Below are positions 28,818 through 31,002 of a DNA stretch of 34,998 nt, piece by piece. A program made the position numbers and the translations under genes. Each line of letters begins with the position of its first letter. The stretch's first letter is position 1. This stretch comes from Chlamydiia bacterium (GTDB lineage: Bacteria; Chlamydiota; Chlamydiia; Chlamydiales; JAAKFQ01), in NCBI GenBank assembly GCA_041688145.1, contig JBDNIV010000012.1:1-34998 (forward strand). The letters run 5' to 3'. The notes under the pieces were generated by a model. The model was not told the origin of the DNA. It saw nothing but the letters and a program-made list of their open reading frames with translations, and ran no database searches.

Positions 28818-28872
28818 CCCCTTTATTACCATAAAAAAGCCTATTAAAAAAAATGACACATGGTCTTTAGCT
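28818..28872 (-). pseudogene. Decayed remnant of the toxin pre-tip junction
   Basis: Hand alignment to 29856-29911 gives 41/56 identical nt with one 1-nt gap. It reads AKDHV / NRLFYGNKG versus toxin AKEYV / SGLFYGSEG across a frameshift in a homopolymer run. Confidence 0.55.
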
Positions 28873-28952
28873 AATTTACAGACTGCGCTTCTCTATTTTC
28901 ATATAGCTTTTATTGAGAGTGGGCTTCGAGTTGTTGAGGGCACAGGTGTCGA

Positions 28953-29192
28953 TTAAACGGGGTCTAGCCCTTCTAATGCATTTGCTAGGCATTTTTTTAG
29001 CTCTTTAAGAGAAAACTCCCAGGCTTCTTGGCCTTCTGGAGGAGCATATATGAATATTTTAGCCTTTTCTTTGCCTTCTTCTTGAGTAATTTCAGCAACA
29101 CAGTGCTGATCATAATAAATTTCTAGGCACAATTTTTCATACTCTGATGGGCTTGTGTATAAGATTGCAAAACCGTCGCCTGGGTTACACAT
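28953..29192 (-). CDS. Putative immunity protein, second (orphan) copy
   Basis: 79 aa; 38/78 identical without gaps to 29285..29521; ATG overlaps the stop of the orphan toxin tip (TAATG). Confidence 0.7.
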   Translation of the reverse strand: MCNPGDGFAILYTSPSEYEKLCLEIYYDQHCVAEITQEEGKEKAKIFIYAPPEGQEAWEFSLKELKKCLANALEGLDPV

Positions 29193-29257
29193 TACAAGCC
29201 TTTGTTCTTGGGTTCAAGAAAATGTTCAAAATTTCCATCTTTGTCAAATCTAGCACC
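29192..29257 (-). pseudogene. Orphan toxin C-terminal tip fragment
   Basis: Translates GARFDKDGNFEHFLEPKNKGL*, homologous to the toxin end GARFNRDGAFENFLGPRGVE*; has no start codon of its own. Confidence 0.8.
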
Positions 29258-29284
29258 TTCCCAATAATTGAACTGCTTGCCTTT

Positions 29285-29521
29285 TCAAAGCTTTAGTCTT
29301 TCATAAGCACTGGAAATAGCCTTCAGTAGCTCTTGATAAGGAAGCTTCCAATGATCTGCTCCTTCTGGAGGGGGGGCAATCGTAATTTGGGCATTTTCAA
29401 TACCCCCTTCCTGAGTAATTTCTGCAAAGAAATGCTCATCATAATATATTTCTACACAAAAATTTTTATACTCTGGAGGATCTGCAATAATTGTACAAAA
29501 TCCATCACCTGGCCTTCTCAT
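29285..29521 (-). CDS. Putative cognate immunity protein
   Basis: 78-aa acidic protein (EIYYD...AEITQE...PPEG...W); start overlaps the toxin stop (ATGA at 29518-29521). Confidence 0.7.
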   Translation of the reverse strand: MRRPGDGFCTIIADPPEYKNFCVEIYYDEHFFAEITQEGGIENAQITIAPPPEGADHWKLPYQELLKAISSAYERLKL

Positions 29522-31002
29522 TCTACACCCCTTGGTCCTAAAAAATTCTCAAACGCTCCATCTCTGTTAAATCTAGCCCCTCTTCCATCTGGTAAATGGA
29601 TATCAACGCCCCCTTTTTTATTTTTAAACTTTTCTGCTTTTGGATAGTGGACTATTTCTTCGAGCTGTCTTTGTCCATGCTCATTAATTTCTTTAATATT
29701 CCCTTTTGGCTTTGGAAAGTTTTGTTCCTTGCGATCTCCATGCTTTTGCCCTGATCTTCCAGCTTGAGTATACCCCTCTCTATCCAGCCTCTTACCTGAT
29801 TCAACATTTGGCTCTGGTAGTCGATCATCTTGAGCTTTTTCCCCTGGAAGTCCCACCCCTTCACTACCATAAAAGAGCCCACTCACAGAAGACTTCACAT
29901 ACTCTTTTGCTTTAGATACCCTGTCCATAGCAACACCTGCTACGCCGCTTTCATAAGCGCTGTATCCCGCATAGGTCGCGACCGCTACAGCGCTTCCTAA
30001 TAAAACTAGAGGCGCTGCTTCTACTGCCATTACCGCAGCAGGTACAGCTAACGCTATACCCATAATAGTACCGTTACCTAACCCTGATGAGATCTTTGAT
30101 GGAGCTTCTATCAGCTTTTCTCCAAAAAACTGATCTACTTCTGATTGCTTGCTAGTATCGCTTTCTAAAAAATCTTGGCTCGCTATAGCCTGACCAAGCT
30201 CTTTAGCTGCTTTGATTTGCTCATTACTGATCACTGAAGAGGCTTCTTCTTTTTCTCTTTGCTGTTTTGCTAGTTCTTCTAAATACAGCCTTTCTTGCTC
30301 TCGCAGCTCTTGACGCGCCATTTCCATCCGTTCAGATGAAGGAGTCGGAGTAACTTGTGTTAATGGGTTGCCATTTGTAGTTACATTTGGCAAATCATGT
30401 ACATCAGCGCTAGCAATAGCGCCGGCAATGGCTCCTGCCGTAATTGCAATCCCTGTGACAATAGCATCTCCACATTTTCTTAGCGCTCTTCCTGTTCCTT
30501 TGCAGGCTCTTCCAACATCTGTAAAAAAACCACCCCAACTGCACGGTAATAAAAAATATTCTCCGGGAATACTAGTTTTTGCATATCCCCAAGCTTCTTC
30601 CAATGGAATAGGCTTAGAAAAGCTGTAGTCTCTTTTGTAGTCCACTTCATCTAGTAATGCTTGAATCTCTTGATTAAGAACGTCTTCATCCACAGGCACC
30701 ACTAAAGAGCCTACCTTGGCTGAAAAGGCGATGAATTTGACAATGATTTGAATCTCTTCAGCTGTGCACCTAGGATCTAGAGCTTCTCTTTCTATAGACC
30801 TAATAAGTGCAATAGCATCATCAAAGGTGCGGATGCGGCTCAATACAGGATAGCGCTCAGTATCTTGTAAAGAAAGGGGATGTATCTCCAAGGTCTCAGA
30901 TGCTAAGGCGTAAGTAGGCAGAGGCGCAAACACAAAAGGCAAGATAAGAGCCATATAAAGGCTTAGGAGATTAAGACTTCGACGCAATAGAGACGCCTCC
31001 AT
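29518..31002 (-). CDS. Putative secreted polymorphic toxin with C-terminal nuclease-like tip
   Basis: Signal-peptide-like N-terminus, two Gly/Ala-rich hydrophobic helices and a coiled coil. The basic ~100-aa C-terminal domain AGRSGQKHGDR...FPKPKG...INEHGQ...PDGRGARF..DG.F..FL.P resembles, from memory, C-terminal tips of Rhs/filamentous-haemagglutinin toxins. Followed by a coupled small ORF. Confidence 0.65.
   Translation of the reverse strand: MEASLLRRSLNLLSLYMALILPFVFAPLPTYALASETLEIHPLSLQDTERYPVLSRIRTFDDAIALIRSIEREALDPRCTAEEIQIIVKFIAFSAKVGSLVVPVDEDVLNQEIQALLDEVDYKRDYSFSKPIPLEEAWGYAKTSIPGEYFLLPCSWGGFFTDVGRACKGTGRALRKCGDAIVTGIAITAGAIAGAIASADVHDLPNVTTNGNPLTQVTPTPSSERMEMARQELREQERLYLEELAKQQREKEEASSVISNEQIKAAKELGQAIASQDFLESDTSKQSEVDQFFGEKLIEAPSKISSGLGNGTIMGIALAVPAAVMAVEAAPLVLLGSAVAVATYAGYSAYESGVAGVAMDRVSKAKEYVKSSVSGLFYGSEGVGLPGEKAQDDRLPEPNVESGKRLDREGYTQAGRSGQKHGDRKEQNFPKPKGNIKEINEHGQRQLEEIVHYPKAEKFKNKKGGVDIHLPDGRGARFNRDGAFENFLGPRGVE

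Follow-up and report, generated by a model that had tools for sequence, protein, structure and literature searches.

A candidate polymorphic toxin-immunity locus in an environmental chlamydia, with a CdiA-CT-like tip on a chlamydia-specific carrier

Organisation of the locus

The window analysed here is a stretch of 34,998 nucleotides from a Chlamydiia bacterium (assembly GCA_041688145.1, contig JBDNIV010000012.1, positions 1 to 34,998 of the forward strand). Between positions 28818 and 31002 it contains a candidate polymorphic toxin-immunity locus, which comprises five elements that all lie on the minus strand. In transcription order these are an open reading frame (ORF) of 494 amino acids (aa), an ORF of 78 aa, an orphan of 30 codons, an ORF of 79 aa and a remnant of 55 nt. 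A first-pass annotation, made from the letters of the window, had proposed this series, with the 78-aa ORF coupled to the 494-aa ORF by ATGA, the 79-aa ORF coupled to an orphan toxin tip by TAATG and a decayed junction at the end, and every one of the five was recovered.

The 494-aa ORF is the putative toxin gene (29518..31002) and consists of a carrier and a C-terminal tip, which are matched by the respective family profiles with E-values of 2e-65 and 1e-41. The motif AAGGAA stands 9 nt upstream of its ATG. Hydropathy analysis revealed three hydrophobic stretches, namely residues 8-35, 177-201 and 307-347. The first of them falls within a signal-peptide-like N-terminus (residues 1-35, 30898..31002), in which RR, a hydrophobic run and ...YALA/SE can be recognized, and is followed by a chlamydia-specific carrier N-domain that was delimited by alignments to relatives (residues 36-176, 30475..30897). 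The second (30400..30474) comes after a basic patch and aligns with the position of the family's KKxKKFxKKHKK patch and transmembrane (TM) segment. The third is a two-lobed hydrophobic stretch of about 40 aa (29962..30084). Residues 358-404 (29791..29931) form a pre-tip junction (KEYVKSSVSGLFYG...) that is common to a paralogue at a contig edge of the same genome and to the remnant at 28818-28872, and residues 405-494 (29521..29790) form the toxin tip. Over window positions 29001-30500 the GC content is unremarkable (0.41-0.44). The GC skew over the toxin gene falls to about -0.25 and the AT skew to about -0.2, values that set it apart from the window's other minus-strand genes.

Directly downstream, an acidic 78-aa protein is encoded (29285..29521), the ATG of which overlaps the TGA of the toxin gene as ATGA; we predict it to be the cognate immunity protein. 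It is followed by the remnant of a variant toxin end (29192..29284; 30 codons plus TAA), of which the part in frame with the TAATG stop (29195..29284) encodes 30 residues, with the last ~22 aligning with the end of the toxin tip. The K-H-G-x-R part of the tip is missing from it, and on alignment the orphan represents the displaced end of a toxin rather than a second toxin. Overlapping its stop codon as TAATG, a 79-aa paralogue of the first small protein (28953..29192) is predicted to be an orphan immunity protein. The tip (residues 405-494) has an isoelectric point of 9.7, while those of the 78-aa and 79-aa proteins are 4.7 and 4.4, so that their charges are opposite.

The unit of tip end and small ORF represents a direct duplication of ~329 bp with 71-77% nucleotide identity. 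The last element (28818..28872) is a decayed copy of the pre-tip junction; it matches toxin residues 364-382 and aligns with 29856..29911 at a local score of 24, which none of 200 shuffles reached (12.7 +/- 1.5, maximum 19). A layout in which an immunity ORF and an orphan tip form a fusion that is followed by a second immunity ORF also occurs in two other genomes (loci L004 and L068), and 3'-partial tip matches are numerous across the order. Contigs assembled from an independent public run span the remnant, the 79-aa ORF, the orphan and the 78-aa ORF (28648-29343) as well as the 78-aa ORF and the tip (29334-29653) with zero differences. Since these contigs bridge the array without differences, it is not an assembly artefact.

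Hidden Markov model scans of the whole genome, which is 92% complete, detected one carrier, one tip and two immunity genes, and no further ones. The paralogue that shares the pre-tip junction lies at a contig edge (locus L002, G000:C46:3-1122) and is a 5'-truncated ORF (3-647) that has the hydrophobic part of the window toxin in common as well. Over 181 aa the two proteins have 28% identity, with an E-value of 4e-5 in a search of a small database and of 2e-4 in pairwise comparison. This ORF differs at its C-terminal end, and it overlaps a 161-aa ORF downstream that has no Pfam family; the two ORFs may conceivably be a second polymorphic toxin pair with another tip in the same genome.

The toxin tip and the predicted immunity proteins

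Comparison of the last 120 residues with all chains of the PDB (phmmer) delivered a sole match, 6d7y_A, with an E-value of 1.4e-7 over 80 residues. The same chain was again the sole match for a profile built from 53 tips (E 1.6e-10). Structure 6D7Y represents the CdiA-CT of Pseudomonas aeruginosa PABL017, which is described as a BECR-fold tRNase (PMC9086364). Judged by sequence, the tip is thus a homologue of this solved CdiA-CT tRNase, and the first-pass proposal of a BECR-like RNase resembling the toxin tips of Rhs and FHA proteins, the latter typical of CDI (contact-dependent inhibition), holds at that level. Eleven residues are invariant across the 53 tips, and all of them are kept in the window tip (D407, R416, K420, H421, R424, F429, G434, N440, G443, L447 and G475). 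Among them H421 is the sole invariant histidine; it aligns with the histidine of the KH pair in 6D7Y, and the invariant K420-H421-G-x-R424 motif is intact.

The tip family is large: among 1.84 billion proteins, 1768 cluster representatives reach E<=1e-3 and 1043 of them E<=1e-10. Scans of the window protein and the relatives' proteins detected no Pfam or NCBIfam model for the tip. In all 216 full-tip proteins that were fetched the tip constitutes the extreme C-terminus, with the match ending at most 12 residues (median 1) from the end of the protein. The chlamydial carrier N-domain was found in 76 of these proteins, which are mostly 436-540 aa long, and RHS Pfam domains in 30, while few carry PT-HINT, PT-TG or DUF6531. 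At three chlamydial loci (L005, L007 and L008) the tip is located on an Rhs protein, where it is preceded by the Rhs-associated core, at one locus immediately. Named sources of tip proteins are Parachlamydia acanthamoebae, a plasmid of Protochlamydia naegleriophila, Waddlia chondrophila (annotated as 'hypothetical'), metagenome-assembled genomes (MAGs) of Anoxychlamydiales and one Verrucomicrobia MAG.

The 78-aa and 79-aa proteins are 49% identical and belong to a family with 81 members at E<=1e-3 among 5.8 billion proteins. All named members are called 'hypothetical' and originate from Parachlamydiales, Simkaniaceae and Chlamydiota. The first-pass annotation had predicted an architecture of toxin, small immunity ORF and orphan modules, and the wider comparison bears this out: besides the orphan layout in two other genomes, a small-ORF homologue is located directly 3' of the tip in 13 of 14 full-tip loci, the 14th of which runs out of DNA. 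This linkage holds on chlamydial as well as on Rhs carriers. Of 401 genomes of the order, 87 contain the tip, and of 400 genomes, 100 contain the small ORF. Both occur together in 81 genomes, with the tip alone in 6 and the small ORF alone in 19, counts in which related genomes are not independent of each other.

An AlphaFold2 (AF2) model of the 78-aa protein (predicted local distance difference test, pLDDT, 94.1) comprises four strands and then a C-terminal helix. Compared with the PDB by Foldseek this model had zero matches at E<=1e-3, and a wide VIA-align search gave a best Z of 4.7. At the sequence level, zero PDB chains matched either small ORF or the profile of 74 family sequences, so that the family has no solved relative there; it has no Pfam model either, and the ESM Atlas returned unnamed clusters only.

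The carrier and its tips compared with known systems

Proteins of the window type share an order of parts: a signal-like start, a domain of ~140 aa, a basic patch, a membrane segment, an Ala/Gly-rich stretch, often TPR repeats, and the tip. A start similar to that of the window protein (MRxLK, a hydrophobic part and YP) is present in 8 relatives, and the ~140-aa N-domain is characterized by the motif SYDDI..LLD.IESGELE..C...LE....F.A.LA.EG.LP. Of 400 genomes sampled from the order, 117 were matched by its profile; they represent 68 of 216 genera, and several genomes contain at least seven matches. Within the same sample, the profile did not find the domain in the one other genome of the window's family. 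With ~20% identity the window carrier is a divergent member of the family, and a search with the full-length 494-aa protein against 5.8 billion proteins returned the self-match only.

The N-domain corresponds to no Pfam or NCBIfam family, and scans of the toxin, the small ORFs and 29 relatives' proteins against both collections gave nothing beyond TPR and RHS. Its AF2/AlphaFold model is helical and of no more than moderate confidence, with a mean pLDDT of 58 and ~75 in the helical core. The best structural match of this model (Z 6.0) comprised helical fragments and was uninformative, and the ESM Atlas contained nothing for the carrier.

Whether homologues of the N-terminus carry different tips had been proposed as a check in the first-pass annotation. 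Clustering the last 110 residues of 30 full-length carriers yielded at least six unrelated tip classes, which excludes an invariant C-terminus. The 6D7Y type is the largest of them (11 members), followed by the 'MPGKPHSP...PEAHIP' (8), 'RFDFN...PH.H.E' (4) and 'HKDKIANP' (4) types and two smaller ones (2 and 1). A quick tree, computed from 106 tips, placed carrier-borne and Rhs-borne tips mostly apart and required 4 state changes, compared to ~26 in shuffles. Because of this difference the tree suggests that tip exchange between the carrier and Rhs platforms has happened but is rare. A longer orphan array of another tip class was observed at locus L015 (G031:C5, 2214-3989), where three immunity-like paralogues of ~118-150 aa, interleaved with 66-aa orphan tip ends, lie past a carrier with the 'MPGKPHSP' tip.

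Among known systems, the CdiA-CT/CdiI pair of PABL017 resembles the window locus in its tip, which is homologous over ~80 residues and contains the motifs KH...R and DGRGxR...DGxFxxF. In both, the tip occupies the extreme C-terminus and the (here predicted) immunity gene lies directly downstream. However, the window protein lacks the two-partner secretion (TPS) domain, the FHA repeats, the VENN motif and an adjacent cdiB gene, and its carrier measures 400 aa, compared to more than 3000 aa in CdiA. The window immunity protein is about half the size of CdiI and has no sequence similarity to any PDB chain. With Rhs/YD-repeat toxins the locus shares the tip and immunity pair, which ends Rhs proteins of other chlamydiae after the Rhs-associated core, and the orphan tip/immunity cassettes after the main gene, whereas YD repeats and the Rhs core are missing from the window protein.

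The MafB/MafI systems of Neisseria combine a signal peptide, an N-terminal domain and a variable toxin tip with orphan cassettes. The window locus is similar in its Sec-type signal, lineage-specific N-domain, variable C-terminal toxin, downstream immunity gene and orphan modules. However, the MafB N-terminal domain (DUF1020) is absent, no Pfam family being found at E<=1, and members of the carrier family contain hydrophobic segments, and often TPR repeats, in mid-protein. By its gene and domain content, the locus thus seems to work like CDI, Rhs and Maf systems, yet it belongs to none of them.

In a broad survey of polymorphic toxins, chlamydiae are listed under many toxin families (Zhang et al., 2012; Biol Direct 7:18, PMC3482391). 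The same authors regard a Simkania URI toxin with its immunity gene as a 'relatively rare' intraspecific system of an endosymbiont and state that intracellular bacteria such as Waddlia hardly have immunity proteins. In the passages of the survey considered here, neither a chlamydia-specific carrier nor a 6D7Y-type tip or an immunity family of this kind is described. Our literature searches, which covered a limited collection of articles, came upon no account of the carrier, of the tip family in chlamydiae or of the immunity family; on chlamydial polymorphic toxin carriers they found only this survey and a passing mention in PMC6520448.

Interpretation, rival explanations and genomic setting

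Interchangeable tips, a predicted immunity gene immediately downstream and orphan cassettes further downstream, which count among the hallmarks of polymorphic toxins in the sense of Zhang and Aravind, are all found here. For a further hallmark, export and delivery to another cell, the protein displays a signal-like N-terminus and hydrophobic segments. We consider it probable that this environmental chlamydia carries a genuine polymorphic toxin-immunity locus, with a tip aimed at neighbouring bacteria and a 78-aa protein that neutralises this tip. The ATGA overlap would couple translation such that the immunity protein is made alongside the toxin, and the signal-like N-terminus would send the toxin through Sec. 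Its hydrophobic segments may anchor it and later aid its entry into the target. There the tip would cleave tRNA, provided that the neighbour has no matching immunity protein; the likeliest neighbours are chlamydiae that co-infect the host cell, or other symbionts within it. In the producer, the 78-aa protein would bind the tip and neutralise it, and the 79-aa paralogue might protect against the variant toxin of a kin strain. Together with the tip-end and junction remnants, this paralogue may record a past replacement of the tip by recombination at the junction. It is the spare immunity genes, and the genomes that possess an immunity gene only, that argue for bacterial opponents.

Several points weigh against this interpretation. 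The BECR fold of the tip and its cleavage of tRNA are inferred from homology, and H421 is at most a candidate equivalent of the published catalytic residue His3372. The immunity role of the small ORF is predicted from position and co-occurrence, and since no PDB chain resembles the small proteins in sequence, their family would differ from the CdiI of 6D7Y. Cleavage of the signal peptide, together with insertion of the TM segment with its basic flank according to the positive-inside rule, would make the tip cytoplasmic. Furthermore, contigs from four public runs displayed no variation of tip or immunity gene within the population. The organism is presumably obligately intracellular, and a eukaryotic target is plausible as well. 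More generally, nuclease activity, immunity binding, the export route and the kind of target (bacterial or host) are what we infer from the features of the locus.

The alternative that survives best, although we regard it as unlikely, is a host-directed effector. In this scenario the carrier, using for example type III secretion, would deliver the RNase tip to the eukaryotic cell or to the inclusion membrane, while the immunity protein would do no more than protect the producer before export. It would fit to a genome of 1.28 Mb that encodes SctV, as expected of an intracellular chlamydia, to the TPR repeats of many carriers and to the ankyrin-repeat gene that occupies the same gap in the sister genus (see below). 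In addition, tRNAs are a conserved target, and the CDI system of PABL017 is reportedly a virulence determinant. The two-lobed stretch at residues 307-347 might then act like that of Inc proteins. However, the N-terminus of the window protein looks like a Sec signal rather than a type III signal, and the stretch is absent from close relatives of short form (L003 and L004). Toxin domains of intracellular bacteria are seen as mostly aimed at the host by Zhang et al. (2012; PMC3482391), who however link host-directed toxins to missing immunity genes, while such a gene is nearly always present here. Furthermore, spare immunity copies without a full toxin, as in the 19 genomes that contain the small ORF only, make sense only if foreign toxins are met, and the same tip and immunity pair is found on Rhs proteins.

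Much less probable is an addiction module of the toxin-antitoxin type, in which the toxin stays inside the cell and the pair stabilises itself or the surrounding DNA. A small acidic protein beside an RNase of the BECR superfamily, which is home to RelE and BrnT too (PMC9086364), would be in line with it, and by the topology argument given above the tip could stay in the cytoplasm. However, a carrier of 400 aa that begins like a signal peptide and contains hydrophobic segments has no role in such a module, and the toxin-first gene order, the swapping of tips among carriers and Rhs proteins and the orphan arrays speak against it too. That the locus is the decaying, presently functionless relic of a horizontally acquired cassette is equally improbable: two remnants do display decay and the entire genome yielded a single carrier, a single tip and two immunity genes, but all three ORFs are intact, the tip retains 11 of 11 invariant residues, start and stop codons still overlap, and the sequence is identical in public runs of three studies, with a collinear piece of ~4% divergence in a fourth.

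If the reading as an interbacterial toxin is extended beyond the window, a broader proposal can be put forward, which we hold to be possible but rather doubtful. Chlamydiae would possess a delivery platform for polymorphic toxins that has so far gone undescribed. At least six interchangeable tips, each accompanied by its own immunity family, would arm it and kill rival chlamydiae or other symbionts sharing the host cell or inclusion. With similar reserve, we would describe this platform as a carrier in which a Sec-type signal is followed by a helical N-domain and a membrane segment, often also by TPR repeats, and which is present in about three of ten sampled genomes, with as many as seven or more copies in a genome. 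The common view of obligate intracellular bacteria is that their toxins are directed at the host and that kin discrimination is of little use to them; if the proposal is true, chlamydiae inside hosts would routinely engage in interbacterial warfare. The combination of a matched immunity gene, spare copies and a widespread carrier makes toxin competition among chlamydiae inside host cells directly testable. Besides, three unannotated families were defined, namely the carrier N-domain, the 6D7Y-type tip and the immunity fold of ~75 aa. By means of these families, hundreds of 'hypothetical' chlamydial proteins could be named, including those of cultured Parachlamydia, Waddlia and Protochlamydia.

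The locus is contained in public metagenome runs of lakes, freshwater and salt lakes, which come from several studies. RNA runs are not listed among them, an absence that speaks neither for nor against expression.

The genome comprises 1.275 Mb in 51 contigs. Besides SctV, it encodes two ShlB-type ORFs of 534 and 586 aa, outer-membrane transporters of the ShlB/TpsB type (PF03865; G000:C18:652-1617 and G000:C29:15731-16660, both on the minus strand). A search with PF05943 did not find TssC of the type VI secretion system (T6SS) in this 92%-complete genome.

In the window, the cassette is flanked upstream by three DUF502 paralogues and downstream by a 56-aa ORF, a small basic protein (TIGR04137), YbeY and a CorC/CBS protein. 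The DUF502 paralogues form a tandem directly upstream of the toxin gene (31078-33187, minus strand); the sister genus contains three as well, and a relative with a genome of ~1.0 Mb (G036) has one match region. In G036 the cassette gap is closed, with DUF502 at ~210 bp from the 56-aa ORF, a neighbourhood of the kind that the first-pass annotation had proposed for C. trachomatis. In the sister genus (locus L019, G001:C30, 2488-5223) a 770-aa ankyrin-repeat gene and a 136-aa ORF take up the same gap. As the gap is closed in the former and ankyrin-filled in the latter, the cassette site is a variable accessory site and a hotspot for accessory genes.

Elsewhere in the window, two long ORFs lack a Pfam family at E<=1e-5, one of 1933 aa (8306-14107, minus strand) and one of 543 aa (392-2023, plus strand). 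A 185-aa protein (15331-15888, minus strand) carries at its C-terminus a MYND zinc finger, which is typically a eukaryotic domain, and may be involved in host interaction. Finally, at 2416-4393 (minus strand) a Fic/DOC-domain protein of 361 aa adjoins a tyrosine recombinase of the phage integrase family (287 aa).

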